From assembly GCA_963837465.1 (NCBI GenBank), contig CAWINB010000004.1:330853-394852 (forward strand): a DNA stretch of 64,000 bases, written 5' to 3'. The translations under genes were made by a program, and so were the position numbers. Below are positions 16,288 through 59,947 of the stretch, piece after piece; position 1 is the stretch's first letter; every line of letters starts with the position of its first letter. The notes beneath the pieces are model-generated. The model saw only the letters and a list, made by a program, of their open reading frames with translations, was not told the DNA's origin and did no database searches. Origin of the DNA: Candidatus Doudnabacteria bacterium. GTDB lineage: Bacteria; Patescibacteriota; Doudnabacteria; UBA920.

Positions 16288-17873
<1,586 letters not shown>

Positions 17874-17878
17874 AGGAA

Positions 17879-18137
17879 CTTTTCTTGACTACACTGGTTT
17901 TCGAACTGTGTGTCAAGACATTCTGTTGGTCGTCGTCAATTATTTCGATTTTTGACGCAATCCTTTCTCAATAAGAAACGACGTAAACGTAAGTGGTTTT
18001 GTATAGCGGTAATTCTACCCATATTTAGCAATAAATATGGGCCTGAGCGCCTTTAATGCTCGGGGTCACTATTTAGCCGTTAAAAAACGGAAATTGCAAT
18101 TAAAAAGCCTGACTTCTACTACTGAAGTGAGGCTTTT
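17879..18137 (+). promoter_or_regulatory. conserved left-arm leader of island 1 (attL arm), with covarying hairpins
   Basis: Homologous to 34681-34942 and 47739-47996. Shared blocks are ggtcgtcg, acgtaaac, ggttttgta, ggtaattctacc, tttagcaataaata, tcactatttagccgttaa, gaaattgcaa. A hairpin plus T-run lies just before the int ATG. Confidence 0.6.
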
Positions 18138-19121
18138 ATGTTTTATAAGGAAAGTGTCGTAGAAACATCTACGAAAACCGACAGTAGGGTTTTGCCATCG
18201 TCCCCGGCTGTTTACAGCCCAAAGATGAGCGAGTTGGTTGATGGGTTTTTAAAGCACGGTCAGTTTGATTTAAGCTGGTCGGCTGGGACAGTCGCAAAAT
18301 ACGGTGAGTGTTTACGGATGACTATTCGGGACATCGGCGATTTGCCGGTAAATGAAATCCGTTTGGTTCACCTTACGGAATTAAAATCTAAAATAATAAT
18401 GCGCGGAGCCGGAGAGTCCAGAGTCGGCTCAATGGTTTTTGCGTTAAAAAGTTTTTTAAAATACTGCAAGGAAATTGTGGAGTTGGATGTGCTGGACTTT
18501 AACAAGATTACCCCGCCAAAACGCCATCGCCGGGAAGTGCTGTTTTTGACCAACGAAGAAATTCAGCGGTTTGTGGATGTTATAAAAATAAAAAATACCT
18601 GGGATGGGAAAAATAAAAAGAGTTGCGTCCGAATGGATGGTCTAAGGTTCAGGGCTTTGGTAGAAGTCTTGCTTGGCAGCGGTATGAGAATATCCGAGGC
18701 GTTATCGCTTAACCGGGGTAGTATAAATTTTGAAAAGAAAGAGGCAAAAATTATCGGTAAAGGTAGCAAGGAACGCACGGTATTTTTTAACGATCGTTCG
18801 TTGGAATGGGTTAGGTATTTATTGGAAGAAAGGAAGGACAGTCACGAACCTTTATTTCTTTCCCAAAAAGGCAACAGGTGGGATAAGGGAGAAGTTAATA
18901 AACTGTTTCAGCGTTATACTAAAAAAGCGGAAATCACCAAAAAATTAACGCCCCATATTCTGCGGCATACTATGGCCACAAACTTACTTTTTAACGGTTG
19001 CCCGATTTCCCACGTCAAAGAAATTTTAGGCCATGATAGGCTGGAAACCACGTGCCGCTACTATCTGGGTTTGGACAAGAGTAAGGCCAAGGAGGCTCAC
19101 GAAAAATTCTTGAATTATTAA
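18138..19121 (+). CDS. tyrosine recombinase/integrase (class A)
   Basis: 327 aa with LLGSGMRISEAL...IIGKGSKERTVFF...HILRHTMATNLL...GHDRLETTCRYY. The R..H..R..Y catalytic residues are present. Confidence 0.85.
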   Translation: MFYKESVVETSTKTDSRVLPSSPAVYSPKMSELVDGFLKHGQFDLSWSAGTVAKYGECLRMTIRDIGDLPVNEIRLVHLTELKSKIIMRGAGESRVGSMVFALKSFLKYCKEIVELDVLDFNKITPPKRHRREVLFLTNEEIQRFVDVIKIKNTWDGKNKKSCVRMDGLRFRALVEVLLGSGMRISEALSLNRGSINFEKKEAKIIGKGSKERTVFFNDRSLEWVRYLLEERKDSHEPLFLSQKGNRWDKGEVNKLFQRYTKKAEITKKLTPHILRHTMATNLLFNGCPISHVKEILGHDRLETTCRYYLGLDKSKAKEAHEKFLNY

Positions 19122-19365
19122 AAAAATTTATTGAATAAATAGCTCAATTTCGCTATAATTAGAATAATTGAATAGGTGCCTAACCCCATGGCTAAAACTA
19201 TGGGTATGGTAGAAGTAAAGAATCCTCAGCTACGTAAAGACGGTCTCTTAACCGCTCTCGTAGCTGAGGTGCGTGCGAAAGCATGCGGTGGTGTCGAAAG
19301 GCACTGCTGCGGTTGGGAGGCCCTTTTTGTATCCAACCGCAATTTAAAAACCTCAGCTACAACAA

Positions 19366-21255
19366 ATGAATAACAAATCACTGATTTTTGAATTGCCCAA
19401 AATTGTGGAAGAGGGCAAAAAAGAAGTTGAAAAAATATTGGAACGGCTTTCCAGTCAAAGTCGGTTAGGTTTGCAGACTAATGAGCTGGTTCTACCGGCA
19501 AAAGATAGTGGCGGGCTTTTTCGCGGGCATATAGCAGAACAGAAAAACAATGAGTGGCTGAATCGCTTAATATATGGCGATAATTTGTTAGCTATGCAGG
19601 CTTTGCTTTCCGGCGATGAGCAGAGCGGTCTTGCCAGTATGCGTGGGAAAATAGATTTAATTTACATTGATCCACCGTTTGATAGCAAAGCTGACTACCG
19701 CACAAAGGTTACCTTGCCTGGCGTGGATTTGGAGCAAAAGCCAACAGTTATAGAACAATTTGCATACGCCGATACTTGGAAAGATGGCACCGTAAGCTAT
19801 TTGAAAATGCTTTATCCTCGTCTTGCTTTAATGCGCGAGTTGCTCTCCGAACAAGGCAGTATTTATGTGCATATTGATTGGCACGTCGGGCATTATGTAA
19901 AAATTTTACTTGATGATATTTTTGGAAAAAATAATTTTAGGAACGAAATAATTTGGTGGTATCTTTGGGGAGGAAGAGGTAAGACACAATGGAATAGCAA
20001 ACATGATAATATTTTATTTTATTCCAAGGATAATAATTGGATTTTTAACTTTAAGGATGTATTAGATGATCACAATTTAATGACAGAAGGGTCAAAAAAT
20101 AGGTTGAATTACAAAGGTGCGATGGTAACTACCAAAAGCGAATCCTCAGAAATACCCGAAGATAAAGTGCTGCCTTCTGATACTTGGTATATAGCAACCA
20201 TTAATGCAATGGCAAAAGAAAAATTAAATTATGGTACTCAAAAACCAGAATCTTTGGTAGAAAAAATAATCAAAGCATCTTCAAATGAAAATTCCATTGT
20301 AGCAGATTTTTTTGCGGGGAGCGGGACAACTGGAGCGGTGGCGGAAAAACTTGGACGGAGGTGGATTATGTCGGATATTGGCAAGCCAGCGGCTTTGATA
20401 ATGCGCAAACGGTTAATTGACCAAAACGCCAAACCGTTTTTGTATCAATCCATCGGCGACTACCAAAAAGAAGCGTTTACCTCCTCAAAGTTATACCGCC
20501 GGGTTGGCGACCTGGCCCAGGTGGTATTGCAACTTTACGGCGCAATCCCTTTTACAGAAGACCAAAGCCAAATGCGAAATTTGGGGTATATAAAAGACAG
20601 TAAAACTTTGGTAATGGTGGATTCGCCGAATAAAATGACCGGCCTTGCCACGCTTAAAAAAGCGCAGGAGCTTAAAGCCAGTTTTATGGGCGGATTTAAC
20701 AAAGTGGTGGTCTTGGGCTGGAATTTTACTTTTGATATTACCGAAGCTATTCATTCGCTTAACGATAAAAGCGTGGAAGTTTTAGTTATACCCCCGGATC
20801 TGTTAGATAAGTTAAAGAGCAAAGCTGATTACAAAGACTTGATTGACAGCGGTAAAATTCGTTTTTCCTCTTTGCAATATCTGACTTTAAAACCAATTAC
20901 GGTAAAAATATTGCCGGATGATAAAGAACAGTTGCATGTTGAATTAGATAATTATGTTTTACTTTCCCCAGACAACATACCTTTGGACGAAAAGGACAAG
21001 GAAAAATTAAAAGAAGTCATTGCTAAAGATCCATTGTCTTTGGTTGAATATTGGAGCATTGATCCCGATTATGACGGAGTTACTTTTCGCAGCCTATGGC
21101 AGGATTATCGGGAAAATGAAGACAATGACGCAGAGCCTTACCATGTTGTAAAATCGGTAGATTTGACTGTCCCCAAAAAGAAAGAAAAAAGAATTGTATG
21201 CGTAAAGGTCGTGGATGTTTTTGGTTTTGAAAGTATTGCGACCGAGGAAGTTTAA
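19366..21255 (+). CDS. mod: Type III restriction-modification methyltransferase (Mod, N6-adenine)
   Basis: 629 aa with the IDPPFDS (DPPF/Y) motif and AdoMet-binding [11 protein letters not shown]. It is followed 4 nt later by the res helicase. Confidence 0.8.
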
Positions 21256-21258
21256 CAT

Positions 21259-24171
21259 ATGCCATCACCAATCAGCATAGGCACAAGGGACATTCCCTTA
21301 AAACTTGCCAAGACAATTAGTGAGAAAGTAAATTTAGCTTGGGACAGTGGAGAGTTTTTAGACAAGACCACGGCCGTTACTCAAGATTTGCTAAAATTTT
21401 GGTTTACCGAACCACACATAGAAAACCGATATATTAATTTTCACTCCGGCCAGCGCCAGGCTATTTTAAACACCATTTATTTGCACGAAATTTTAAGCAC
21501 GAAGTCCGTTAAAGATATTTACGAGAACATAGAATTTGAACTGTTGCCGGAAATAGACATAGCCGAGCTAAAAAAGCCAAAATACGAAATTCCCAAATAC
21601 GCTATTAAGATGGCAACCGGGACGGGCAAAACATGGGTGATGCACGCCTTGTTAATTTGGCAATATCTAAACGCCAAATATGAAGCCCAAAAATCAGGAA
21701 AGTTTTCCAAGAACTTTTTATTAGTCGCCCCCGGCATAATCGTCTACGAACGGCTGCTGGATGCTTATTTGGGTAAGGAAAATGAAAATCGGGAACGCCA
21801 ATTTGAGCAATCTGATTTTTACCAGTTTAAGGATTTGCTCTTGCCTCCGGCCTTTAGGGAAGAATTTTTTGGCTTTATCCAGTCGGCCGTAGCCAAGAAG
21901 CAGGACATCGGCAGCAAGGTGACTGGTGACGGCCTGATCGCCATTGCCAACTGGCATTTATTTATGGGGGAAGAAGAATCGGAAGACAAACCCGTTTCGC
22001 CATTAGACAGTCCACAACAAATCCTCAAAGACATCATGCCAATTCGGCCGGGAGTATCCGGCGGCAATTCTTTGGATGCTTTAGATAGTGCCTATTGGGG
22101 CGGCAAGGAATTGGATTATTTGGCCAATTTGCCGGATTTAGTTTGTATAAATGACGAGGCACACCACATCCACGAAAATAAAACCTACGGGGAAGTCAGC
22201 GAGGTGGAATGGCAAAAGAGCTTGAATAAAATTGCCGCCTCCAAAGGCCATAAATTCATGCAGATAGATTTTAGCGCCACCCCTTACGACGTAACCGGCA
22301 GCGGGCAAAATCGTATCAAGCATTACTTTCCCCACATCATTGTGGATTTTAAGCTAAAGACGGCCATAGACGGCGGCTTTGTAAAGACCATAGCCATAGA
22401 CAAGCGCAAGGAACTTGTGGATTTGCCTTTAGACTTTAAATCGGTACGGGACGAAAACAATACCGCTATTGCGCTCTCGGACGGGCAAAAGCTGATGATC
22501 CGTGCCGGATTAAATCGATTAAAAATTCTTGAAACGGAATTTGTTAAATTCACTAAAGATGCCGATGGGGTTTCCAATAAATATCCCAAAATGTTGATCA
22601 TGTGCGAGGATACTAAAGTTACGCCATTGGTTGAGGCTTTTTTTCTGGACGAAGGCTTAAGCGAGGACGAGGTGCTTCGGGTAGATTCCAATAAAAAAGG
22701 CGAGATACCGGAAACGGAATGGAGAGAACTTAAACAAAAATTATTTAATATTGATAAGCATGATAAGCCTAAAGTTATTATTTCCGTGCTCATGTTGCGT
22801 GAGGGTTTTGACGTAAATAATATCTGCGTTATTGTCCCGTTGCGTTCGTCCGCCGCCCCGATTTTGCTGGAACAGACTATTGGCCGTGGTTTGCGGCTGA
22901 TGTGGCGGGAGCCGGAATATCGTGAAGCCAAAATGGACAATATCCGGCAATTGATAAAAGAAAAACGGGAACCGCAAAACTTGCTGGACTTGCTGTTTAT
23001 TGTTGAGCATCCGGCGTTTTTGCAATTCTATGAGGATTTAGACAAAGAAAGCATCGTAGAAGTTGGTGACATACCAGAGGGAGGGGTGTTGGGGGAAATT
23101 ATTAAGGTTGGCTTAAAACCCGACTGGCAAAAATATGATATGTATTGGCCGATCATCTTGCGTGATGCGGAAGATGAAATGTCCGGCAGCCGTCCGCCGG
23201 TTGAAAAAATGGAAAAATTTACCGTTTATGCGTTGGAAGATTTAAAGAAGTTTTTTCATAAAGGCGGCGAAAAATTCGTGTCCGAGGAGTTAACCGTTAA
23301 AACCCGTTTTGGGGAGTACATGGTAGATGCCAGCCTGTTTACTTCCCAAAGCTATAATGAGTATTTGCAGAAAATAATCCACGCAGTAGTCAATAGGACG
23401 GCGAAGACAAGTGCACGTGGGCATAAAGTTTACCCGACGTTACAAATAAACCAACTGCAATTAGTTGAAGCTTTGGATTTTTATATCCGCAATCTGTTGT
23501 TTGGTAACTCATATGACCCGTTTGTTGATAATAATTGGAAAGTGCTTTTACTGAAGAATGGCGTTGTTACCCAGCATATCGTCAAAGAGGTGGGCAAACT
23601 AATTTTTGAAATGCAGAATAACACTACCACGAGCGAGGCATTGGTAGAAAAGCGCCATTTTGCCGAAGTGGACAGTTTGAGGATGAGGGAAAATTATTCC
23701 TTGCCGATTGTAAAAACTATTTACGAAAGATTGCGCTACCCTTCTAACAAAGGCGGTTTTGAAAAAGACTTTTTAAGCTATGCGGATGGCGACGGGCAGG
23801 TGGAGGCGATAATTAAAATCGAAGAATACCAGCACACCTTTGCCGTTATCAACTATATGCGTTCCGATGGTTTTCTCGCCCAATACCACCCGGACTTTTT
23901 AGTGCAGGCGGTCAATAAAATCTATGTTATTGAAACAAAAGCCGACAAAGACATTGACGATAAAAATGTCCGGCAAAAGCAGCTGGCTACGCTGGATTGG
24001 ATTAAGCGGATCAACGGGTTAAAAACCGAAGACAGATTAAAAAAAGAATGGGAATATGTTTTGCTAGGTCAAAGCAATTTTTACGGTTTAAGCAAAAACG
24101 GGGCTTCCATAACTGAAATTTGCGAATTAGCCAAGGTTAGCGAGGCTGCGGTGACCGGCAGGCTACTTTAG
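21259..24171 (+). CDS. res: Type III restriction enzyme Res subunit (SF2 helicase-nuclease)
   Basis: 970 aa with Walker A ATGTGKT, DEAH-like NDEAHH and helicase motif VI QTIGRGLR. Confidence 0.8.
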   Translation: MPSPISIGTRDIPLKLAKTISEKVNLAWDSGEFLDKTTAVTQDLLKFWFTEPHIENRYINFHSGQRQAILNTIYLHEILSTKSVKDIYENIEFELLPEIDIAELKKPKYEIPKYAIKMATGTGKTWVMHALLIWQYLNAKYEAQKSGKFSKNFLLVAPGIIVYERLLDAYLGKENENRERQFEQSDFYQFKDLLLPPAFREEFFGFIQSAVAKKQDIGSKVTGDGLIAIANWHLFMGEEESEDKPVSPLDSPQQILKDIMPIRPGVSGGNSLDALDSAYWGGKELDYLANLPDLVCINDEAHHIHENKTYGEVSEVEWQKSLNKIAASKGHKFMQIDFSATPYDVTGSGQNRIKHYFPHIIVDFKLKTAIDGGFVKTIAIDKRKELVDLPLDFKSVRDENNTAIALSDGQKLMIRAGLNRLKILETEFVKFTKDADGVSNKYPKMLIMCEDTKVTPLVEAFFLDEGLSEDEVLRVDSNKKGEIPETEWRELKQKLFNIDKHDKPKVIISVLMLREGFDVNNICVIVPLRSSAAPILLEQTIGRGLRLMWREPEYREAKMDNIRQLIKEKREPQNLLDLLFIVEHPAFLQFYEDLDKESIVEVGDIPEGGVLGEIIKVGLKPDWQKYDMYWPIILRDAEDEMSGSRPPVEKMEKFTVYALEDLKKFFHKGGEKFVSEELTVKTRFGEYMVDASLFTSQSYNEYLQKIIHAVVNRTAKTSARGHKVYPTLQINQLQLVEALDFYIRNLLFGNSYDPFVDNNWKVLLLKNGVVTQHIVKEVGKLIFEMQNNTTTSEALVEKRHFAEVDSLRMRENYSLPIVKTIYERLRYPSNKGGFEKDFLSYADGDGQVEAIIKIEEYQHTFAVINYMRSDGFLAQYHPDFLVQAVNKIYVIETKADKDIDDKNVRQKQLATLDWIKRINGLKTEDRLKKEWEYVLLGQSNFYGLSKNGASITEICELAKVSEAAVTGRLL

Positions 24172-24192
24172 CATTATGGATTGTAAAAATTT

Positions 24193-24369
24193 ATGTCACA
24201 TGAAGATTTAGACATTGACGAGTTCAAAAGAATTTTTGGAAAGTATTATGACAAGCCGCTTTCCGACCAAGATGCATATGAAGGCGCTTATGATTTGCTT
24301 AACGCTTTTAAATGGTTAGTAGATCAGGACGAAAGCAACAATCTAAAAATTCAGCCAAAAACTAGATGA
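24193..24369 (+). CDS. small hypothetical protein (58 aa)
   Basis: ORF found by eye, below the track threshold. Its stop overlaps the next start in an ATGA arrangement. Confidence 0.35.
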   Translation: MSHEDLDIDEFKRIFGKYYDKPLSDQDAYEGAYDLLNAFKWLVDQDESNNLKIQPKTR

Positions 24370-24533
24370 TTTCTCAAGAAGCGTTAGAAAAATATAAGGC
24401 TATTTACAAGGAAGAGTATGGTGCGGATATTTCAGACGCAGAAGCCTTGGATTTGGCCGTCAATCTTTTAACAATGATGAACGCAGTATATCGGCCGATA
24501 AAAAAAGAATGGGCTGAAGATGCTGACCTTTGA
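24366..24533 (+). CDS. small hypothetical protein (55 aa), paralog of 24708..24893
   Basis: MISQEALEKYKAIYKEEYGADISDAEALDLAVNLL aligns with MISKEHLEKYKQIYKNRFGKELSNQEALEQATKLL of the ORF 340 nt downstream. Confidence 0.4.
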   Translation: MISQEALEKYKAIYKEEYGADISDAEALDLAVNLLTMMNAVYRPIKKEWAEDADL

Positions 24534-24560
24534 ATTTAACAATCAAATTTAGATAAATTT

Positions 24561-24698
24561 ATGAAGGTATTTATTAGGTTAGTGTTAGGCTTAGTGGCAT
24601 TATTGTTTATAACTTTTATGTCGGCTGCTTTTGGGATAGGCGGGTTTTTGTTCACGCTCGGTTTGTTTGCGGTTATAGTTTATGCTTTTGCTAGGTAG
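24561..24698 (+). CDS. small hydrophobic peptide (45 aa, two TM helices)
   Basis: MKVFIRLVLGLVALLFITFMSAAFGIGGFLFTLGLFAVIVYAFAR. It lies between the two paralogs. Confidence 0.3.
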   Translation: MKVFIRLVLGLVALLFITFMSAAFGIGGFLFTLGLFAVIVYAFAR

Positions 24699-24707
24699 CT
24701 ATTTTTT

Positions 24708-24893
24708 ATGATTTCAAAAGAGCATCTTGAAAAATATAAACAGATTTATAAAAACCGTTTTGGGAAAGAATTATCTAACCAAGAGGCTCTTGAGCAGGCC
24801 ACTAAGTTGCTTAGGTTAATAGAAATTATTTACCATCCCATGACCCAGGAAGAGCTGGATATGGTTAATAGGCGGAGACAGGAATTGGGTTAA
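24708..24893 (+). CDS. small hypothetical protein (61 aa), paralog of 24366..24533
   Basis: See paralog alignment. Confidence 0.4.
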   Translation: MISKEHLEKYKQIYKNRFGKELSNQEALEQATKLLRLIEIIYHPMTQEELDMVNRRRQELG

Positions 24894-24899
24894 AAAGCT

Positions 24900-49357: not shown

Positions 49358-49379
49358 GTTTATGCTGTCGCGGTTAAGG

Positions 49380-50382: not shown

Positions 50383-51003
50383 ATGCAGTTTTACGAACTT
50401 AAGGAACAATTAAAGGATTTTATGGTTTTTTCCTTAGCCGATATTCGGAAGGTAGAGCCGAAGTTTTACAGGCCACGCTTGAGTGAGTGGCAGGATAAGG
50501 GTTTGCTGAAGAACTTGCGCCGGGGCTTTTATATGTTCGCCGATACAAAGCTAAATGAAGAAACGTTTTTTTTAATCGCCAATAAGCTCTATGCGCCGTC
50601 CTACGTTTCCTTTGAAATGGCCTTGTCTTATTACAACTTAATTCCTGAAGGCGTATATTCCATAACTTCTGCTACGAGCAAGAAGACAGAAAAGTTTAAG
50701 ACGCCGGTTGGGGAATTTTCCTACCGCAGCTTAAAGCCGCAGCTGTTGTTTGGTTACAATTTGCAGGGCAACGGCAAGCAGCAATACAAGTTGGCGGAAA
50801 TTGAAAAGGCAGTTTTAGATTATCTTTACTTAAATCCAAAGTCTACCAGCAAGGCGGATTTGCAGGAGTGGAGATTTAATGCCCGGGAATTTTTAGCCCG
50901 AGCGGATATGGACAAGTTTAATAGGTATGTTAAAGTTTTTAATAGCCCAAGTTTGGAAAGACGGGCAAAGCAATTTATAAAGTTTATTAAGCAAGCACAA
51001 TAA
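50383..51003 (+). CDS. abiEi: AbiEi-family antitoxin/transcriptional regulator
   Basis: 206 aa directly upstream of, and overlapping, an AbiEii-type nucleotidyltransferase. Size and position match AbiEi. Confidence 0.55.
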   Translation: MQFYELKEQLKDFMVFSLADIRKVEPKFYRPRLSEWQDKGLLKNLRRGFYMFADTKLNEETFFLIANKLYAPSYVSFEMALSYYNLIPEGVYSITSATSKKTEKFKTPVGEFSYRSLKPQLLFGYNLQGNGKQQYKLAEIEKAVLDYLYLNPKSTSKADLQEWRFNAREFLARADMDKFNRYVKVFNSPSLERRAKQFIKFIKQAQ

Positions 51004-51779
51004 TGCTGACTTTAGAACAAATTGAACAGCAGTATCCGGAAAACTTACGAGGCTTTAAGCGTTCGCTGCTTCGGGAGTATTTGCAGTATAAGATTTTAGA
51101 AATTATTTTTGCCTCTGAGTATGCCACCAAGTTAGTTTTTATCGGCGGCACGGCTTTAAGGATAGTTCACGACAACAGTCGTTTTTCGGAAGATGTGGAC
51201 TTTGATAATTTCGGATTAACGGCAGCCGAGTTTGAGGAGACATCGCAAAAGGTTAAGGCAGGACTTACAGCGGAAGGGTTTAATGTTGAAATAGGCTTTA
51301 GGGGTAAGGAATCCTACCGCTGTGATGTAAAGTTTCCCGGCTTACTCTTTGGGAGCGGACTTTCGCAGCACGAAGGCGAAAAGATACTGGTGCAAATAGA
51401 TAGTTTATCCCAAGGCTTTAGCTATAAGCCTGAACGTAAGATATTAAACAAGTTTGATGTTTTTACGGAAATTTTTACCCCTTCGCCCGAGTTATTACTA
51501 TCTCAAAAGATTAACGCTATTTTTACACGGAAGCGGGCAAAGGGCAGGGACTTTTATGATGTTGTGTTTTTACTATCCTTTACAAAGCCAAACTATCAGT
51601 TTTTGACGCAAAAGTGGGGAATTGAGAATGGTGAGGGATTAAGAGCAAAGCTAATGGAAATGGCTTCCAAGCTCGATTTTAAGGATTTGGCACGGGATGT
51701 AGAGCCGTTTCTATTCAATCCGAGTGACAGTAAGAAGGTTGAGTTATTCGCGGATTTTATTAAGCAAGCTAAGTTGTAA
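51003..51779 (+). CDS. abiEii: AbiEii/AbiGii-family nucleotidyltransferase toxin
   Basis: FIGGTALRIVHDNSRFSEDVDFD, the GG..L....RfS.DvD NTase motif of DUF1814/AbiEii. Length is 258 aa. Confidence 0.7.
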   Translation: MLTLEQIEQQYPENLRGFKRSLLREYLQYKILEIIFASEYATKLVFIGGTALRIVHDNSRFSEDVDFDNFGLTAAEFEETSQKVKAGLTAEGFNVEIGFRGKESYRCDVKFPGLLFGSGLSQHEGEKILVQIDSLSQGFSYKPERKILNKFDVFTEIFTPSPELLLSQKINAIFTRKRAKGRDFYDVVFLLSFTKPNYQFLTQKWGIENGEGLRAKLMEMASKLDFKDLARDVEPFLFNPSDSKKVELFADFIKQAKL

Positions 51780-51782
51780 GTT

Positions 51783-51865
51783 AGCAATTAATTGATCTTT
51801 TAAATTTTTAATACAGTAGTAGTTTGTCAGGCAATTTCCGTTTACAACGGCTCAGAAACACCTCC
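51783..51865 (+). repeat. right arm type 1 (second copy) plus partial core cacctcc (51859-51865)
   Basis: Identical over about 78 bp to 34585-34662. After cacctcc the sequence diverges (ctccggctacag). Confidence 0.75.
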
Positions 51866-52558
51866 CTCCGGCTACAGAAAATGCAAATACAGAAACTGTC
51901 CAAGAATGAAATCGCCCGCTCGTAATTGAGAGGGTTTTTGATTATAAGAGACCGATGGGTTGTGGTTCATGTTACCTCTGGACAGTTTTCGGCCGTAGGT
52001 TATAATTAAGGCAAGATATTAACTAATTATTATATGGGGACTTATGCAGGAGGCAGGCCAGGTGGAGAAGTTGACCCGGGGCTTATTGCCGGTCAAATTT
52101 TGGACAAATCAAAAAAAGGCGAAAGCAAACAGAAACAGCCTTTAGCCGAGGCTCTTGCTGATAAGGCATTATCGCGAGACCAGATGTTTCAAAAGCTGTA
52201 TAGTATGGTGCCAGCAATGGAACGCTATGCCGAATCACGGCTCGGCAGCCATAAAGCCAATGCGGCCGACATTGTGAGCAAGGCCATGGCCTACGTGATT
52301 CAGAGTGCAAGCGTTACCTTTTGGGTGCTTATTTCCGGAAATTTTTTTACGAAAAAACTTAATCAAAATCGCAATGTTCAAGAAATACGCGTGTTTTGAA
52401 ATTTTCATTTCAACACACACATATCCCTTGAAGCAACTTAACTAGTTAAACCACGATTTTTTGTCTTAATTGTGTTTTAAAAATACAATCTCACGCACCC
52501 AAAAGGTAACGCTCTCATTCAGAGTATAGATAACGGGGTTTTTCGGTTTAATGCGCCG

Positions 52559-52891
52559 TTGAGCAGTTGGTTTAAAATCTCGGTAAATGGGCGCATCCAG
52601 GATCGTTTTCGGTCGGCAACTAACGACCCCTTGGATCGAGCGGAAAGCATGGATGCGCCTATGGAGTCGGCAAAAGGGGATGAAAGCTATCGCCAGTATG
52701 CTGATTCTACTCCAAATATCGAGGAAAAGTTGGTGGCACAATCCAACGAACAGGCGCTTAAAAGAGGTATCGCCGTGCTCCTAAAACAGAACCAAAAACT
52801 TGGCGACGTTATGAGTTTGGTTGCCGACGGTTTAACCAACCAAGAAATCGCTGAGCGGCTAGGCGTTAATAGCAACCAAGTCAAAGTATAA
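52559..52891 (+). CDS. LuxR/GerE-type HTH regulator (C-terminal HTH)
   Basis: LVADGLTNQEIAERLGVNSNQVKV at the C-terminus. Length is 110 aa. Confidence 0.5.
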   Translation: MSSWFKISVNGRIQDRFRSATNDPLDRAESMDAPMESAKGDESYRQYADSTPNIEEKLVAQSNEQALKRGIAVLLKQNQKLGDVMSLVADGLTNQEIAERLGVNSNQVKV

Positions 52892-52965
52892 TGGACTGGG
52901 AATCCTGTACAGGTATATTAGATAGAAAATCGGGGGTATAATACTGTCAGGAAGGAATAACAAAA

Positions 52966-53256
52966 ATGAAAAAGGTGTTTACCCCGCAGCAGAAAGCTGC
53001 GGTAGCCCTGGAGGCCATTAAGGGCGAATTAACAATTGCACAGATTGCCAGTCAATACGAAGTTCATCCCACTCAGATCGCAGTCTGGAAGAAACAGGCC
53101 ATAGAGATTTTAAAGGCCGGCTTTACCGATAAGCGTAAAAAGGAAAATTTTGACCAGCAGAGGATAACTGATGACCTCTACAAGACCATCGGCCAGCGCG
53201 ACATGGAGCTGGCCTGGCTTAAAAAAAAGTTGCAGCCATTTGGACTTTCAGACTAA
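52966..53256 (+). CDS. IS3-family transposase OrfA
   Basis: 96 aa: LTIAQIASQYEVHPTQIAVWKKQ (HTH) plus a leucine zipper. Confidence 0.7.
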   Translation: MKKVFTPQQKAAVALEAIKGELTIAQIASQYEVHPTQIAVWKKQAIEILKAGFTDKRKKENFDQQRITDDLYKTIGQRDMELAWLKKKLQPFGLSD

Positions 53257-53700
53257 ACAGAATTTAATTATTCCCGGTCTCCAAGGCCTTTCCATTGCCA
53301 GGCAAGCAAAGCTCCTTAATATTTCCCGCTCCGGTTTTTACTACAAGCCCGCGTCCCTAAGCCCTGAAGAAATTCGCATCATGGGCTGTATAGATAAAAT
53401 CTTTACCGATTGCCCATTCTACGGCTCCCGCAGGATCAAGCACGAGCTGGAAAGTCAGCCGTACAAAATTTTCATCTGTCGAGAGCATGTGCAACATCTT
53501 ATGCGCCAGATGGGACTGGAAGCTATATATCCAAAAAAAATTACTACCATACCTAACCTGCAGCACCTTAAATACCCCTACTTGTTAAAAAATTTGCCTA
53601 TTGTGAGGCCTAACCAGGTCTGGGGCACGGATATTACCTACATTAAGCTACTCGGCGGCTTCTGTTATTTAGTCGCCTTACTGGACTGGTTTTCCCGATA
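53171..53700 (+). pseudogene. IS3-family transposase OrfB, truncated after the first part of the rve domain
   Basis: Homology (..VWGTDITYIKLLGGFCYLVALLDWFSRY) stops at about 53700. The remainder of the 53171..54139 ORF is unrelated low-complexity sequence. Confidence 0.6.
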
Positions 53701-54525
53701 CGGGGAATATAGGGATACAAAAAATCAACCGTACATAGAACTGCAAAAATCCGGGTGGAAAGGTGAATTAGGTCAAGAGCTAAAAAATAGATTTAGCTCT
53801 GCCTCTGAACAATCGCATGCAAACTTGTTTAAAATGATGTTTTGGAGAGGCTCAAGAACAGAAAAAGAAAATGGTCAATTTAAGATAGTAGATCGTTTTG
53901 AATTTTTTGACAATCCAAACCCGCCAGATTGGATGATAACTAACCTCCACTGGCTGATAGACACCTCTTTTACCATACTGATTTTGTTGTCAGAAACTTT
54001 TCAGGAACCTCAAAAAAACAGTGATTTTAAAAAAGCAGTACAGACTAAATATTCAAAGTATAAAAAATACATACTTGAGAACCAGGACAAAATATTGATT
54101 AGACATAAGCTCACATATATTCCAGAAGAAGAAGTTTAATTTTTTGGTCAAACTCCACTGTCGATATTTTATAATTGATTTGTTATGACCGTTGGTTGTT
54201 TTTTAAAATTTTTGTTATAGTTTTATCGGAGTAGTGAGAGTTGGTGTTTTTAGCCCTTTTGGCTAAAACACTGCCGTGTAATAAGTCCGCCATCCGCCTT
54301 GTGCGGTGGATTTGCCCGAGTAGGGTGAAAGGTGCGGTTAAAAGCGGCAGTGGCTTACGGGTCCACCAAGAGTTCAGCCGAGCAATAACTGGAGCAAAAC
54401 CGAGGGCTGGAAAGCGAAATAGGATTTTCCTCTCGCTTGCTACTCCCGCAAAGAACTTCCAATTTTGGGAGTTTTTTGTTTTTAAACAATAGGGAATATG
54501 GAGGTATTGTTATAAACACCTCATT

Positions 54526-55152
54526 TTGTGGTATAGTATAGGTATGAAAATGTTGCTTGAATTTGACTACAAAAAAGCCACCCAAGCGATAAACTACCTC
54601 ACAAAAAAAGAGGGCGGACAGATTGATAAACTGAAACTCATTAAGCTTGTCTACCTCGCAGATAGGTATCACTTGCGGCGATATGGTCGGCCGATGGTCA
54701 ACGATGCCTATTTTGCCATGCCTCTCGGCCCAGTTGGTTCATCCGTAAAAGACATTGCGGAGTTTTCTGGTTTTCTTGATGGGTCAGAACTAACCTATGC
54801 TGTAACATATTTGGGACGCGGGGGCGTTGAAAATACAGTGGTGTCCATAGCAGATGTTGATACGGGAGTTTTTTCAAAGAGCGAAATCGAAGCTCTTGAT
54901 TTTGCCTATAATGAGTTTGGCGGACAATCAGCCCCGTCTTTAGTAAATATTACACATCGCTATCCGGAATGGGATAAATTTAAGAGTGCGCTCCAATCAA
55001 AAGAAACAACCCGTGAGCCGATGTCTTATACTGATTTTTTTAAAAACCCCATCAATGGGACAGAAGATAAATTTGTCCTCTCAAGTGACATACTTGCGGC
55101 TTCCAAAGAACTTTTTGATGAAGACTACAAGATTGCCGAATACTGGAGATAA
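54526..55152 (+). CDS. Panacea-domain (DUF4065, SocA-like) putative antitoxin
   Basis: KLKLIKLVYLADRYHLRRYGRPMVNDAYFAMPLGPV matches the Panacea domain signature. Length is 208 aa. Confidence 0.6.
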   Translation: MWYSIGMKMLLEFDYKKATQAINYLTKKEGGQIDKLKLIKLVYLADRYHLRRYGRPMVNDAYFAMPLGPVGSSVKDIAEFSGFLDGSELTYAVTYLGRGGVENTVVSIADVDTGVFSKSEIEALDFAYNEFGGQSAPSLVNITHRYPEWDKFKSALQSKETTREPMSYTDFFKNPINGTEDKFVLSSDILAASKELFDEDYKIAEYWR

Positions 55153-55173
55153 ACGGGATAACCGATATACGGA

Positions 55174-55627
55174 TATGAAAATCCCAGCGCACATTCGCAT
55201 TTTAGCGACAATACAACCTGGCTCGATTTATTATTTTGAAGAAGAGCAACTCTCTTCACCAGAGCCGCACTACTTCATAGTTTTGAATAAAGACCCGCTC
55301 ACAGAGGAATTTCTTATTCTTGTTTGCGCTTCTTCCCAAGTTGAGAAGCGTCGGCAGATAGCAATAAAGCTGGGCTTTCCAAAAGAAACTTTGGTATTTG
55401 TATCACCATCCGAATGCTCGCTTTTCACAAAGGATACCGTTATAGATTGCAACAGGGTTTTTGAAAAAACTTCGCAGTCTCTCATTGAAAAACTTGAGCA
55501 AGAGAATCTCAAAGTATGCGCAGAAGTAATTGCCACAGAGATTATCGCCAAACTGATACAGGGAGTGTTGGCAAGCTCGCAAGTATCCGAAAAGATACAG
55601 CAATTACTCTTAAATCATACCAACTAA
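55174..55627 (+). CDS. hypothetical protein, candidate toxin partner of the Panacea protein
   Basis: Probable start MKIPAHIR, inside the 54986..55627 track ORF. Immediately downstream of and overlapping the Panacea gene. Confidence 0.35.
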
Positions 55628-56587
55628 GCCCCGGGCTTAAAAATCCTATGCATAGTCAGCCAGCGTAAACTTTAGCAAACCTTGTTCGAACCTCTCTGCA
55701 GGTGGCGAGCCACATGGGACGAACAACCTCGAAAGAGGGGGTTCGTCCTTTGTTTATCGATGGATTCTTTTGTTCGAACCTTGCAGATGCCTTTGGTTCT
55801 TGCTTGATGCCATTTTTTATTATTTCCAGCTCTTCAGGCAAGCAAACATTGAGGATTTTGTTGATTAGGGTTGTGTTCGAACCTAATTCCGAAAGTATCT
55901 CTCGTTTCTTTTTAATATCGCCGTGCTTCAACAAATATTTGGCTTGGAACACAAAATCACCGTACGGCAGTGGCGACACCAAATTGTAGTAGAACCTAAA
56001 TTAACAAAATAAATCTCTCTTGCCTGAAGAGAGATTATTGGTGTTAGTTTTGGTTTTGGTAGATTTTTTGGTTTAGCCATTGGCTTGGACAATTTTTTGC
56101 AGATCGAGAGGTTCGTCTTTTTTTGCGTTTTTCATTGGCGCGGTATCGTATACATATTTAAGCAACGAATCCAAGGTAAACGAACCAAACTGTTTTATTA
56201 TGGTATCAACGATGTCTTTTTTTACCGGTGCTATATTCAACTCTACTGGCTTGCCGGTATATTGGAAAAGAAAATAGACTTCATCGGGATGGGATACTTT
56301 ATTTTGTTGTTTGACCTCAATAAATTTATGGGCTTCAAGTGGGCACAGTCATAGTTGAAAGTCAGGGATGAAAAGCAATTCCGAAGCACCAAGTTTTTGC
56401 CAGCCGGGGCCGACATAAAAACTTCACAGTTCATTTATGGTAATACCCTGGCTATTATTTCCCTCAATAAGCGCAAGCCCGTAGCCATAATCATGGAAGA
56501 CCCGGATAGTGGATGTTACCAATCTGCCGCGAGGAACCTTTATTGAATCGTGTTATAATAAAGGAAATTAACCCATTAGAAATAAAT

Positions 56588-57043
56588 ATGAAAATCCATA
56601 CCCAGACTGATAAAGAGAGGCAGCAGCAGTTAAAGCTGTTTTATGATTTCATAAGATCGCACAAGCTGGCGGTTATGGCTACGGTAACCGGAAGCGCTTT
56701 GCCTGAAGCTGCGGTGGTAGGCATTGGGGTGGAGGAAAACTTGCAATTGCTTTGCAGCACTTTCAGCACCTCCAGGAAATATGAAAATATTAAACTGAAT
56801 CCGAAAGTCGCGTTGGTCATTGGCTGGGAACACGGTAAAACGGTGCAGTACGAGGGGACGGCCGAGGAGTTAAGTATTGAGCAGGCCGAAGAAAATCCGC
56901 TGCGGGACGGATTGGAAAAAATACCGGCCATTGCCAAGTATGTACAAAGGGAATACGGCGTGTTCTATAAAATTAAGCCAGAGTGGGTTAGAATGAGCGA
57001 TTTATCGGTAGACCCATGGGAACGGTTTGAAATTAAGTTTTAA
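56588..57043 (+). CDS. pyridoxamine 5'-phosphate oxidase-like FMN-binding split-barrel protein
   Basis: LAVMATVTGSALPEAAVVGIGVEENLQLLCSTFSTSRKYENIKLNPKVALVIGW, a PNPOx-like pattern. Confidence 0.5.
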   Translation: MKIHTQTDKERQQQLKLFYDFIRSHKLAVMATVTGSALPEAAVVGIGVEENLQLLCSTFSTSRKYENIKLNPKVALVIGWEHGKTVQYEGTAEELSIEQAEENPLRDGLEKIPAIAKYVQREYGVFYKIKPEWVRMSDLSVDPWERFEIKF

Positions 57044-57080
57044 CTAAAAATAATTAAGAACCTGTTTTAAAACAAAACAT

Positions 57081-57638
57081 ATGAACGAAACACAAAATGT
57101 TGTGCAAATCCCCGAGCCGGCCTTGTCGCGGTTTTTATTCGCCGACAGCCGCTTTGCCTGGTTCTGGCTTATCGTCAGGTTGTATGTCGGCTGGCAGTGG
57201 CTTTCGGCAGCTTGGGAAAAATTCAACAGCCCCATGTGGGTGGGTAGTCAGGCTGGTGTTGCCATTAAAGGCTTTCTTATGGGTGCCGTGCAAAAAGCTG
57301 CCGGAGCTCATCCTGACGTTTCCGGATGGTATGCTGCTTTTTTGCAGAACTTTGCCATTCCCCACGCCGCGGCTTTTTCTTATGTGGTAACTTATGGCGA
57401 ATTGTTGGTAGGAATTGCCTTGATTTTGGGCGTGCTTACGGGTATAGCGGCTTTCTTTGGCACGTTTATGAACTTGAATTATTTGTTTGCCGGAACCGTC
57501 AGCATCAATCCTTTATTGGCCGTATTAGGATTGTTCTTGATTTTGGCTTGGCGCACAGCAGGCTGGTACGGGCTGGACCGCTGGTTGTTGCCAACCTTGG
57601 GCACGCCTTGGCAAGCAGGCAAAATATTTAAAGGTTAA
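57081..57638 (+). CDS. DoxX-family membrane protein
   Basis: 185 aa with 4 TM helices and a DoxX-like N-terminus (FAWFWLIVRLYVGWQWLSAAWEKF). Confidence 0.55.
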   Translation: MNETQNVVQIPEPALSRFLFADSRFAWFWLIVRLYVGWQWLSAAWEKFNSPMWVGSQAGVAIKGFLMGAVQKAAGAHPDVSGWYAAFLQNFAIPHAAAFSYVVTYGELLVGIALILGVLTGIAAFFGTFMNLNYLFAGTVSINPLLAVLGLFLILAWRTAGWYGLDRWLLPTLGTPWQAGKIFKG

Positions 57639-57678
57639 TAGGTTCTAGAAAAAATTAATCTTTACTATAATATGCAAT

Positions 57679-58470
57679 ATGCAACCATCCTTACAACAGC
57701 TTATAAACCTTAAAGACAAAACTGCCGTTGTTACCGGCGGCGCTATGGGCATTGGCTTTGGTATCGCGTATCGGCTTGCAGAAGCCGGAGCCAATGTAGT
57801 TGTCGCGGATATGAATGAGAAAGTTGGCAAGGCTTCAGCAAAGCAATTGGCTGATAAAGGCTGGAAAGCCGGCTTTGTCAAGGTTGATGTCTCTGATGAT
57901 TTGCAGGTAGGGGCGGCAGTGGAATTTGCCCGCAAAACCTACGGCGGCATTGATATTTTAGTCAATGACGCCGGCATTTATCCCATAGCTCCGATCATGC
58001 AAATGGCTGTGAAGGATTTTGAGAAAGTCCTTGCCGTAAATTTAAAGAGTGTTTTTCTTTTTACCAAAGCCGTGGCGCAAGTTATGATAGAGGACGGCAA
58101 GGGCGGTAAAATTATAAACATCACTTCCGTGGACGCTCTCCATCCTTCTTCGGTGGGTTTGGCTGTTTATGACGCTTCAAAGCATGGGCTGTGGGGTTTT
58201 ACCAAAAATACCGCCTTAGAACTGGCGCCGCATAACATTCAGGTTAATGCCATAGCCCCGGGCGGTATCGCTACACCCGGCACAGGAGCGGGCCAAGCGC
58301 AAACTCCGCAAATAGAGGCAGTCACCAAAGAATTTTTGAAAAAAATTCCCATGAAGCGCATGGGTGATCCCGACGACATCGGCAAAGTCGCCCTGTTCCT
58401 TGCTTCCGACCTTTCCAGCTACATGACCGGGTCACAGGTAGTGGTTGACGGAGGAGTTTTGCTGGCCTGA
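57679..58470 (+). CDS. SDR-family short-chain dehydrogenase/reductase
   Basis: TGGAMGIGFG (TGxxxGxG), NDAG, and YDASKHG (YxxxK). Length is 263 aa. Confidence 0.85.
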   Translation: MQPSLQQLINLKDKTAVVTGGAMGIGFGIAYRLAEAGANVVVADMNEKVGKASAKQLADKGWKAGFVKVDVSDDLQVGAAVEFARKTYGGIDILVNDAGIYPIAPIMQMAVKDFEKVLAVNLKSVFLFTKAVAQVMIEDGKGGKIINITSVDALHPSSVGLAVYDASKHGLWGFTKNTALELAPHNIQVNAIAPGGIATPGTGAGQAQTPQIEAVTKEFLKKIPMKRMGDPDDIGKVALFLASDLSSYMTGSQVVVDGGVLLA

Positions 58471-59072
58471 TAAATTATTATATAATCGCATGACCGGCTA
58501 CAAAGATGTTTTGGGTATTGTTACTTTATTAATCGCAGTAGTCAGCTACAGTTTTTATTTTAAAGATGTCTTTTTGGGCCATACCAGGCCGCAGCCTTTT
58601 TCTTGGTTTGTTTGGTCAGTCCTTTCTGCCGTAGCCTTTGCCGGCCAAATTGCCTCAACTGCCGGGCCGGGCGCTTGGATTACGGGATTTACTGCCAGTG
58701 GTGTGCCTTATCATTTCCGTAATAGCTTCCTTTAAAGGAGCAACGCAATTTAAAATTTTAGACTGGATTTCGCTGTTTGCGGCTTTAGCGGCGCTCCTGC
58801 TTTGGTATTGTACAAGGCAGCCGGTTTTGGCAGAGATGTTGGTAAGCGCGGCTTATGCGCTAGGTTTTATCCCAACCATTGTAAAAAGCTACAACAAGCC
58901 CCAAGAAGAAACGGCTACCACCTTTGGGCTAAATTCCATTAAGTTTGGCATTTCCATTTTTTCCTTAACCGTTTTTTCCGTTGCCACCTGGCTGTATCCG
59001 CTGACACTTTTTGTCTTAAATGGTTTATTTGCCATTATGCTGTTAGCGCGCCGTCAGCAAACGGCTGGTTGA
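58445..59072 (+). pseudogene. membrane protein split across two overlapping frames (frameshift near 58640-58735)
   Basis: ORFs 58445..58735 and 58638..59072 are both hydrophobic multi-TM and overlap in different frames. Either a frameshifted pseudogene or a sequencing error. Confidence 0.35.
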
Positions 59073-59120
59073 ATTAAAAGCAGGTTCTAGCTTAAAATCT
59101 GCCCGGCTATACGGAATATT

Positions 59121-59612
59121 GTGCCAAAGCGCATTGGTCCCTCATGTCGGCGATTTTCTAAATTAGTCATGAATCCCATAATTTTCCTTATCCTCAATCT
59201 GGCTTTAGCCTTTTATAACGTCGGTACCATCTGGGCCATGGAAGTGGATATTTTCCGCTCCTGGAAACTTGCGGGCGCTGATTTTCCCAAAGTCCAGGAA
59301 GTTCACTGGCGAAAACTTCCTTATTGGGTTTTTGCTCCGGTAGTTTCGGCCCTTTTAGGCGGCATCGTGCTGGTTTGGCATCACCCGGCCAACTCGCCAG
59401 CTTGGGGATACTTCGGAGCTTTGCTGTGCCAAGCCGCCTCTTTAATTTTAACCGCCATCTTTTGGGGGCAGTGGCAGGCAAAGCTGTCCAAAGATCCGCT
59501 CGGTCCTAACTGTTTGTACTTGCAGAAAATTTTAGCCACCCACTGGATCAGAACCTTGCTTGTCAATGCCTATGCTTTTATCTTGCTGGCATGGATGGTA
59601 AAAATCATATAA
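59121..59612 (+). CDS. membrane protein
   Basis: 163 aa with 4 predicted TM helices. Confidence 0.4.
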   Translation: MPKRIGPSCRRFSKLVMNPIIFLILNLALAFYNVGTIWAMEVDIFRSWKLAGADFPKVQEVHWRKLPYWVFAPVVSALLGGIVLVWHHPANSPAWGYFGALLCQAASLILTAIFWGQWQAKLSKDPLGPNCLYLQKILATHWIRTLLVNAYAFILLAWMVKII

Positions 59613-59889
59613 CCCGCGAAGGCTATTTAATGAAACAATAAAATCTAAATTACTAATCCAGAAAAGAAATTGCAGGCTTTAGGGACAAAGCGATCCACGA
59701 CTATGCCGGCCTTCATGCCGGGATAGTTTGGGAAACCATCCAAACGGATTTAAAACCACTACAAACAGCCTTGTTAAAAGTATCATAAGAGCTAAAAGTT
59801 GATATTTTTGACAGGCTGTTTTGTTTTCTCAAAAATGCTATAATGTAATTACTAATTGTTATCTCAACTGGAGATAAAAGCCTCTTTTC

Positions 59890-59947
59890 AAACTAAATAG
59901 TGACTCCTGCAACACAGTTCCTACGTCGGGGTGAACACCTCCTTTCT
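59890..59947 (+). repeat. terminal right arm (type 3) plus partial core cacctcctttct (59936-59947)
   Basis: aaatagtg...ggggtgaacacctcctttct resembles the aaatagtgggagcgagtgggggtgaaca...cacctcc of right arm type 2. The probable distal attR of the whole array. Confidence 0.5.

Follow-up and report, generated by a model that had tools for sequence, protein, structure and literature searches.

The 3' end of a Doudnabacteria 16S rRNA gene as a probable attachment site for tandem integrative elements

Why is the 3' end of a 16S rRNA gene repeated several times in the DNA that follows it, with tyrosine recombinase genes behind the copies? The question is raised by an 868,218-bp metagenome-assembled contig of a Doudnabacteria bacterium, a member of the Candidate Phyla Radiation (CPR, or Patescibacteria), of which we analyzed a stretch of 64,000 nucleotides (the window; coordinates are window positions). 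In the window, an array at 17861-59947 begins at the 16S 3' end and comprises five or six tandem units, here called E1, E2, E2b, E3 and E4, each bounded by the anti-Shine-Dalgarno heptamer CACCTCC. We consider it probable that integrative elements with Xer-like "simple" tyrosine recombinases attach at the 16S 3' end, centred on CACCTCC; this confidence covers the whole explanation given below, mechanism included. The recombinase family is called IntA here, L-numbers designate loci of relatives, and P-numbers designate integrase proteins.

The 16S rRNA gene and the copies of its 3' end in the window are as follows.

16287-17870, plus strand: 16S rRNA gene, full length, Rfam score of 1274 bits, model positions 1 to 1533 matched.
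17861-17878, plus strand: core copy 1, CACCTCC followed by TTTCTAAGGAA; 16S 3' end and left junction of E1.
34663-34680, plus strand: core copy 2 (18-mer).
46050-46115, plus strand: heptamer core (46050-46056) and type B trailer with an intrinsic terminator at 46083-46107; left end of E2b.
47721-47738, plus strand: core copy 3 (18-mer).
51859-51940, plus strand: heptamer core (51859-51865) and type B trailer with a terminator-like hairpin at its end; the same junction type occurs in L019.
59936-59947, plus strand: terminal core copy, CACCTCCTTTCT; distal junction with the chromosome.

A preliminary description of this DNA had reported three exact copies of the last 18 nucleotides of the gene and three shorter cores. 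The 18-mer CACCTCCTTTCTAAGGAA was indeed present at 17861, 34663 and 47721, whereas about 0.1 matches were expected even with 3 mismatches and none of 100 shuffled sequences reached 3. Among the shorter cores, the 12-mer CACCTCCTTTCT recurs at 59936 as described, but at 46050 and 51859 conservation is limited to CACCTCC. The sequence common to all junctions is therefore the heptamer only.

Each 18-mer is followed by a conserved left arm. The three aligned regions of about 320 bp, which extend from about 20 nt 5' of the core across the left arm to the first 20 nt or so of an integrase gene, have a mean column identity of 78%, and each leads into a PF00589 gene, as had been claimed for the recombinase genes at 18138, 34943 and 47997. 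Two further recombinase genes, not counted in that description, lie inside units (27917-28885 and 39633-40682). The other end of each unit is formed by a right arm.

34581-34662, plus strand: right arm type 1, end of E1.
45833-46049, plus strand: right arm type 2, end of E2.
47496-47720, plus strand: right arm type 2', end of E2b.
51778-51858, plus strand: right arm type 1, second copy, end of E3.
59887-59935, plus strand: right arm type 3, holding CTAAATAGTG, the inverse of the trailer box described below.

Right arms had been described as near-identical (type 1) or homologous (type 2), and both statements hold. The type 1 arms are identical at 86 of 89 positions (34581-34669 against 51778-51865), 76 nt of this at 100%; the type 2 arms are 77% identical over 172 bp (45833-46004 against 47496-47655), and their final 25 nt, tttacacctcggattaaaCACCTCC, are the same in both. 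The type 3 arm has AAATAGTG and GGGGTGAAC in common with type 2, and AAATAGTG is also present in several right arms of the Doudnabacteria type. E1 and E3 end in type 1, E2 and E2b in type 2, and in both arm pairs the junctions lose identity right after C7 of the heptamer.

The three recombinases at the 18-mer cores are members of one family.

18138-19121, plus strand: IntA-1, Xer-like tyrosine recombinase.
34943-35929, plus strand: IntA-2.
47997-48968, plus strand: IntA-3.

IntA-1, -2 and -3 match PF00589 with E values of about 1e-40 and are 59 to 62% identical to one another. Together with the two further genes, they give five recombinases, 5 to 10 kb apart, and six core copies in 42 kb. In an alignment of 17 sequences, R184, K208/K211, H273, R276, H299 and Y308 were invariant, with a spacing that we take to be XerD-like. 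The N-terminal 28 or so residues are variable or missing across the family, which argues, at the level of sequence, against a lambda-type arm-binding domain in IntA. The solved structures nearest to the window recombinases are XerA, XerD and XerH. All five fall below the curated Xer cut-offs (best XerA scores of 177 to 197 bits against 220; XerC/XerD scores of 145 to 180 against 330 to 335), and the integron-integrase model TIGR02249 gave 82 to 99 bits against a cut-off of 265. An identity as a recombinase-in-trio (RIT) element was rejected, since the window has no three adjacent co-oriented recombinases and its genes are 5 to 10 kb apart.

Does the link between IntA and the 16S end extend beyond this window? 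A homologue search with IntA-1 gave 1553 matches at E <= 1e-3, the top 120 listed being 51 to 92% identical. A locus scan with one genome per species covered 78 loci, of which 59 were assessable for a core upstream, and in 46 of these the core CACCTCCTTTCTA[AG]GGA lay 150 to 340 nt upstream of the recombinase gene. We found that the core is a real 16S gene end in 16 CPR loci, from bins labelled Doudnabacteria, Moranbacteria/Moraniibacteriota, Parcubacteria, Nomurabacteria and "Saccharibacteria". Several family contigs open with the last 45 nt or so of the 16S gene, as expected of assembly breaks in rRNA, and four contigs each carry two family integrases 9 to 21 kb apart (L010/L019, L003/L053, L005/L041 and L027/L038).

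The host genes around the array place it at a conserved chromosomal position. RNase Y, YmdB, NusA and ClpP are encoded upstream; downstream, LytR (start at 60018) and an ABC ATPase follow, so that the distal flank is not rRNA. That the array took the place of an ITS-23S linkage, as the preliminary description proposed, is no more than a possibility. By a search with NusA, Doudnabacteria are the nearest relatives that carry a name. No 23S rRNA, tRNA or tmRNA gene was found in the window (Rfam for rRNA; a tRNA/tmRNA scan), in line with the earlier remark that no 23S follows, and the 16S at this locus is probably the only copy in the genome. The NusA-ClpP-16S synteny is kept among Doudnabacteria relatives, and the content after the 16S gene differs in each genome; this comparison, suggested in the preliminary description, showed relatives with either a trailer and cargo there or no 16S gene at the locus. 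When relatives were sampled through NusA, unselected for integrase, L082 and L084/85 were informative; in the rest the 16S gene was truncated where the locus or contig ended, or was absent from the locus. L090 and L093 keep the NusA-ClpP synteny without a 16S gene (HrcA-GrpE-DnaK follows in one, his genes in the other), which indicates that the position of the 16S gene varies in this clade.

The same element was found in different contexts. The P0014 integrase, an identical protein, occurs in three contigs: in L101 the 16S gene stands directly before the core, and in L100 and L102 an unrelated, non-16S arm does. From C1 of CACCTCC onwards, L100 and L101 share 99.875% identity across 7183 bp, whereas upstream of the core they are unrelated (119 matches in 500 positions), the first mismatch falling at -1. 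The same element thus follows the 16S gene in one metagenome and unrelated sequence in two others. The order of elements also varies. Contig CAWBGV010000028 carries, in this order, a 16S gene, a W3-type element, a W1-type element, a type 1 arm, CACCTCC and a type B flank like that at 51859; this is the reverse of the order in the window, where the W1-type element adjoins the 16S gene and the W3-type is distal (in L019 the W1-type is internal).

Taken together, these breakpoints, at C1 in one comparison and after C7 in the others, bracket the 7-bp CACCTCC, and homology on one side only of a junction excludes homologous recombination. A tyrosine-recombinase overlap region is usually as long as this heptamer, and we infer that CACCTCC is the overlap. 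In a possible alternative reading, TTTCTAA, flanked by the inverted repeats CTCC and GGAG, would be the overlap, and the junctions at 46050 and 51859 would be illegitimate products. With the 16 CPR loci, the variable order of elements and the change of context of P0014 at CACCTCC, the original proposal that the 16S 3' end serves successive islands that restore the gene is largely supported.

What does the sequence between the core and the integrase gene do? The preliminary description took the left arm as a recombination arm. Its conservation beside the core is as described, but the arm also has the features of a complete pre-16S trailer, with covarying hairpins and pairing to the 16S leader.

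15600-15628, plus strand: candidate rRNA promoter, TTGACA-17-TATAAT, 12 of 12 consensus matches.
15973-15998, plus strand: part of the 16S leader, ccttaacagttaaatagtgattagaa; forms the outer long-range helix with the trailer box.
16029-16038, plus strand: part of the 16S leader, TACAAAACCA; forms the inner long-range helix with trailer TGGTTTTGTA.
17879-18137, plus strand: trailer 1, with hairpins P1 and P2, GGTTTTGTA, the box TCACTATTTAGCCGTTAA at 18066-18083, and a terminator hairpin with T-run at 18102-18137 ending at the integrase ATG.
34681-34942, plus strand: trailer 2.
47739-47996, plus strand: trailer 3.

The order of trailer elements is the same across phyla: a palindrome CUCCUU/AAGGAG, P1 with a UUCG-type loop, GGUCGUC, P2, optional hairpins, the box, and a terminator whose T-run abuts the integrase ATG. 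The terminators in front of integrases were called by RNAfold and alignment reading, a simple terminator scan having caught only 46083-46107. The structure was specified by hand and then cast as a covariance model, R1, of the 5' domain of the trailer, with 60 copies from the window and 93 loci. In the R1 helices 88% of cells were paired, compared with 61.5% in shuffled alignments, and 23 of the 28 base pairs were changed on both sides. The covariation score was 0.446 against 0.132 for shuffles (0 of 500 reached it) and at most 0.10 for slid controls, in an alignment fitted by the model itself, which favours the structure. MAFFT with RNAalifold on whole trailers had recovered just P0, part of P2 and the terminator, and was set aside.

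The conserved unpaired motifs of the trailer are explained by pairing with the 16S leader. Trailer GGTTTTGTA pairs with leader TACAAAACC at 16029-16038, and this helix is nested inside the outer one, formed by the box TCACTATTTAGCCGTTAA and 15973-15998. Compensatory changes were observed between the leader-trailer pairs of the window (TAAATAGTGA/TCACTATTTA), L008 (AATAGCGGTAAGAAA/TTTCTTACCGCTATT) and L011 (CATAGTGA/TCACTATG); in other CPR classes TTTTGYGRTTAGTCC pairs with GGACTAAYCRCAAAA, and the pairing spans 17 nt in L025 and 15 nt in L054. In at least 12 genomes the long-range helices at the trailer box have 10 to 17 nt of exact, covarying complementarity extending to 20 to 30 bp. The duplex energies were -35 to -55 kcal/mol, compared with shuffle means of -20 to -36, and 9 of 11 duplexes lay below all of 50 shuffles, the window barely (-37.2 against -36.4); L041 did not. 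From these features the left arm is predicted to be the 3' half of a classical pre-16S processing stem joined to an operon terminator.

Trailer type tracks integrase type rather than position in the host, and L100 carries its trailer away from any 16S gene. Each element thus appears to bring its own replacement trailer. The notion that right arms are general mimics of the 16S leader, pairing with the next trailer, was rejected: only L053, L056 and L030 exceeded shuffles, and only in L053 did the pairing fall on the trailer box. The type B trailers could likewise not be supported as a native 16S flank; a degenerate pattern of the 16S end with a type B trailer gave one match in metagenome contigs, a chance match in a GC-rich coding region without rRNA.

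We propose that an element consists of the core, the trailer (P1, P2, two leader-pairing segments and the terminator), intA, cargo often including a second recombinase, and a right arm ending in CACCTCC. IntA would catalyze strand exchange within or at the heptamer, joining the host 16S body to the last bases, trailer and terminator of the element. The 3' end, processing stem and transcription stop of the rRNA gene would be preserved, the trailer acting in pre-rRNA processing and termination, and the terminator would shield the cargo from rRNA read-through. Each integration would regenerate a usable core, leading to tandem pile-up, and the integrase-less units (46050-47720 and 51859-59935) would probably have moved in trans. 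The ATG stands right after the T-run, and the 3' strand of the terminator stem would sequester a Shine-Dalgarno-like GAGG, which suggests that intA is expressed only through rare terminator read-through.

Several observations weigh against this explanation. The junctions at 46050 and 51859 have just 7 bp in common. The search for empty-site junctions, recommended in the preliminary description, came back empty: the exact 26-mer of the 16S end and the distal flank of the array, an empty bacterial attachment site (attB), had 0 matches in metagenome contigs, and among relatives the locus carried trailer and cargo or no 16S gene. Scans of metagenome contigs, which were aimed at empty-site junctions, turned up no circular excision junction. 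L082 and L084/85 have a trailer of about 230 nt after the 16S gene without an adjacent integrase, and in L082 and L084 the trailer can be read as native host sequence; the self-fitted R1 alignment belongs here too. Outside the CPR, family members with 47 to 53% identity (Bryobacteraceae, Syntrophorhabdaceae, Smithellaceae, Arenicellales and others) have the core at internal junctions of defence arrays, with defence cargo as the upstream DNA and pairwise similarity often beginning at the core; Rfam found no small-subunit rRNA gene within 10 kb upstream in 6 of 7 such loci. L026, from a Bryobacterales bin, has a partial 16S gene at 1-708 on the opposite (minus) strand; this gene and its leader are GC-rich and unrelated to the trailers, with which the leader does not pair; mis-binning or chimerism is possible in this case. 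Finally, no family member was found in IMG/VR, and the plasmid and phage collections PLSDB and INPHARED held no IntA relative above 30% identity; a phage or plasmid origin was rejected on the same results.

Could the 16S end instead be the fixed primary site of an integron-like platform, where resident recombinases shuffle cassettes, the right arm acts as attC and the integrases are themselves cargo? The array resembles integrons in its ordered units at one site, some without a recombinase (46050-47720, 51859-59935, and the two integrase-less cassettes among three near-identical arms in L030), in the conserved, partly structured arm that ends each unit and is reused with different cargo, in the nearly uniform orientation of its genes with the 16S promoter, and in recombinases from the Xer/IntI neighbourhood. 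Yet most units have their own integrase at the core, the integrase type travels with the trailer type, and an entire element, over 7 kb long, is shared between two contexts. IntA is repeated in the array and co-oriented with the cargo rather than divergent, its score of 84 bits is far under the integron-integrase cut-off of 265, and the units are multi-gene, 1.7 to 17 kb long, with their own promoter-like sites and an rRNA gene end as primary site; the single divergent integrase with promoterless attC cassettes of one open reading frame (ORF) that defines an integron was not found in the window. We therefore regard an integron-like platform as unlikely.

A resident, non-mobile arrangement would explain why the trailer pairs and covaries with the host 16S leader and why L082 and L084 have a trailer without integrase. 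On this view the CPR rRNA locus would have the trailer and a domesticated Xer-like recombinase as native parts, for example for dif-like resolution, and the copies would stem from segmental duplication or homologous recombination. The proteins are indeed Xer-like two-domain recombinases, and CPR Xer-like recombinases are grouped as presumed cellular enzymes by Smyshlyaev et al. (PMC8138268), to whose Xer-related "Cand" subgroup such a system would correspond. A cellular system would be expected to have one recombinase set and one dif per replicon; the window has three IntA copies (59 to 62% identical) and two other recombinases in 42 kb, all scoring under the equivalog cut-offs of XerC, XerD and XerA. 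Genomes differ in cargo and in element order, unrelated phyla have the family at internal junctions of their defence arrays, and the exact breakpoints, with no homology on the other side, exclude homologous recombination, which makes such an arrangement very improbable. We give still less weight to an assembly artefact, that is, a chimera of collapsed or mis-joined repeats from several strains. The window does come from a metagenome-assembled contig, its repeats are 80 to 280 bp long, and many related contigs break at the 16S gene or the core; but many assemblies, made independently in different projects, show this architecture, including the four contigs with two family integrases, an independent Logan assembly reproduces the junction at 34640-38405 with 100% identity, and repeats that have diverged to 59 to 78% identity are unlikely to collapse.

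How do the proposed 16S-targeting elements compare with known systems? Integration into tRNA and tmRNA genes is textbook knowledge. Like the islands found there, the elements have a tyrosine recombinase beside the target-proximal junction, carry the 3' end of a stable RNA and restore the gene, are flanked by direct repeats, accumulate in tandem at a regenerated site, and bear accessory and defence cargo. Three features by which such islands are recognized were found here, namely a tyrosine recombinase with the catalytic residues, direct repeats of the 3' end of an intact target, and pairing of integrase and junction in relatives. For a further one, a change of flanking context or an empty site in relatives, one element in two contexts and a variable element order were observed, but no empty site and no circular form. 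The target is the 16S 3' end rather than a tRNA or tmRNA gene. IntA elements differ further in targeting the anti-Shine-Dalgarno heptamer, in bringing a pre-rRNA trailer of about 260 nt with a leader-pairing strand and operon terminator, and in using a "simple" Xer-like enzyme. Tandem islands are reported at ssrA in Dehalococcoides (PMC3146451), and Islander and TIGER catalogue islands by integration site, the TIGER survey text that was searched containing no mention of rRNA targets (PMC7192596). The preliminary description had called a 16S-targeting recombinase family undescribed to its author's knowledge, and we likewise found no description of a 16S-targeting integrase in the literature searched, the coverage of which is incomplete. 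The elements behave like tRNA- and tmRNA-targeting islands with another target and an added, element-borne pre-rRNA trailer.

Among Xer/dif systems and the elements that exploit them, the XerS-difSL and XerH-difH pairs show adjacency of gene and site, and integrative mobile elements exploiting Xer (IMEX) include CTX phage. These resemble the IntA elements in their two-domain recombinases, in a site directly upstream of the gene and in tandem arrays at one site; IntA is unlike them in being element-borne, in multiple copies and below the Xer equivalog cut-offs, at a site that is the 16S end and not the terminus dif. Eukaryotic ribosomal DNA elements (the R1/R2 retrotransposons and Pokey), which use target-primed reverse transcription or transposases, insert inside the 28S gene and inactivate the copy that they hit among hundreds. 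They too are mobile elements specialized on a conserved rRNA-gene sequence, but IntA elements would insert at the extreme 3' end of a 16S gene that is probably the only one, and its function would be preserved. Smyshlyaev et al. 2021 (PMC8138268) describe a "Cand" subgroup of Xer-related simple tyrosine recombinases from candidate phyla, presumed to be cellular Xer substitutes, and give no site, element or rRNA link. By its CPR origin and its relation to Xer, IntA may belong to the same clade.

If the explanation is true, rRNA genes join the list of stable-RNA targets of site-specific integrases, with the particular demand that the element replace the flanking pre-rRNA processing and termination signals. 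The trailer box must match the host 16S leader, and this offers a natural explanation for host-range classes. It would also mean that the 16S flank is a place to mine defence systems in CPR and other uncultured lineages, that rRNA operons have a route to unlinking, and that a recombinase with a nearly universal bacterial target is a potential tool for engineering uncultivated bacteria. Assembly breaks just after the 16S gene would be explained, with the warning that sequence downstream of 16S may be mobile. A wider picture is more tentative, and we hold it for possible rather than likely: a recombinase family of several phyla would be specialized on the anti-Shine-Dalgarno end of 16S, better conserved than any other short sequence in bacteria; its elements would bring a host-matched pre-16S 3' flank with stem strands and terminator; the probably single CPR rRNA locus would become the main hotspot of defence islands, with maintenance and integrase expression tied to rRNA transcription; and insertions of tens of kilobases would be one possible cause of the widespread "unlinked" 16S and 23S genes.

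The units of the array and their main cargo are as follows.

17861-34662, plus strand: unit E1, with IntA-1, a LOOT RNA, type III restriction-modification, a Rep-like protein, a second recombinase, a diversity-generating retroelement (DGR), a methyltransferase and BrnT/A.
19366-24171, plus strand: E1 type III restriction-modification genes, mod at 19366-21255 and res at 21259-24171.
26498-28885, plus strand: E1 interior, rolling-circle Rep-like protein (Phage_CRI) at 26498-27703 and second tyrosine recombinase at 27917-28885.
33726-34272, plus strand: toxin-antitoxin pair at the right end of E1, the BrnT toxin with a small ORF as its partner.
34663-46049, plus strand: unit E2, with IntA-2, ParB, another recombinase, and Dcm with a PstI-type endonuclease.
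38583-42873, plus strand: E2 cargo, ParB-like protein, second tyrosine recombinase (39633-40682), and Dcm methylase with BsuBI/PstI-type endonuclease (type II restriction-modification).
46050-47720, plus strand: unit E2b, integrase-less, one HopA1-like ORF.
46125-47486, plus strand: E2b cargo, 453-amino-acid protein with a weak HopA1-like domain.
47721-51858, plus strand: unit E3, with IntA-3, an IS256-type transposase fragment and AbiEi/AbiEii.
50383-51779, plus strand: E3 AbiEi/AbiEii.
51859-59935 (body 51941-59886), plus strand: unit E4, no family integrase; IS3-type transposase, SocA antitoxin-like protein, PNPOx, DoxX, SDR and others.

The array had been described as consisting of integrase-bearing islands. 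Three units do carry IntA, but at least two (46050-47720 and 51859-59935) are without a family integrase, and E4 could be either a mobile unit or captured DNA. Nearly all array genes are co-oriented with the 16S promoter, and the cargo is mostly anti-phage defence and addiction modules. Toxin-antitoxin or AbiE modules stand at the right ends of units in the window and in other phyla, consistent with a role in stabilizing the units.

Several features were observed within the units. In E1, the segment 24900-28885 (a 404-amino-acid ORF, the Phage_CRI Rep-like gene and the second recombinase) may be a nested element. A hybrid integrase gene in L019 (10001-11167), W1-like in its 5' part and like the second recombinase of the window in its 3' part, looks like a deletion through recombination between two integrase genes. 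The DGR of E1 (29129-31717) has its variable repeat (29654-29782) at the 3' end of the ORF 29129-29806, a template repeat at 30148-30276, from which the variable repeat differs at 26 positions, all 26 at template A, and a reverse transcriptase at 30674-31717; homologous reverse transcriptase modules occur in L006, L019 and L053. E3 is interrupted by the IS256-type transposase fragment (49209-50210), beside an inverted recombinase remnant (48946-49282), and the IS3 pair of E4 lies at 52966-54139.

LOOT RNA (RF03000, 61 to 89 bits) was found in four copies: in the window at 689-802 and 19177-19305, in L010 at 16987-17107 (minus strand) and in L014 at 4399-4512. The copy at 19177-19305 follows IntA-1 directly and precedes the type III mod gene, with a good promoter-like site (19131-19159) ahead of it; the copy at 689-802 is outside the array, upstream of a bPH_2 gene. 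These positions suggest a 5' leader or small RNA common in CPR mobile DNA. Also outside the array are an rve-family integrase or transposase just 5' of the rRNA promoter (14183-15469, minus strand) and a MazF-type toxin near the window start (97-507).

Further features were observed in relatives. The 16S gene of L010 has a group I intron (8071-8566), and those of L041 (7367-9726) and L007 (about 6390-9779) have long insertions. The P0076 integrase, identical in sequence, lies beside two different 16S 3' regions (L098 as against L094-L099); its element (L094-L096) has a phage-like look, with a small terminase subunit and a second integrase, as does the P0014 element (L100-L102), with eight small minus-strand genes in a block.

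Among the non-CPR members, whose host-like GC content indicates long-term residence, a tRNA or rRNA anchor was rejected: small-subunit rRNA was lacking in the 6 of 7 loci mentioned above, and no tRNA or tmRNA gene was found in 23 related loci. L026 has three trailers, at 3358-3461 (minus strand), 7225 and 9768, one of them inverted, and the DNA between the oppositely oriented pair may be capable of inversion. In L040 (8517-11834) and many other non-CPR loci, the core and trailer lie between two co-oriented recombinases, often with a third one, inverted, directly behind them; this +,+,- layout, seen in Acidobacteria and deltaproteobacterial bins, is unlike a RIT trio. The clearest cassette-like array in the data set is that of L030, an Arenicellales chromosome, where near-identical right arms at 3504, 7167 and 9689 all end in CACCTCC and the first two are followed by the integrase-less cassettes, which start with tt(t/c)caactgactatt.

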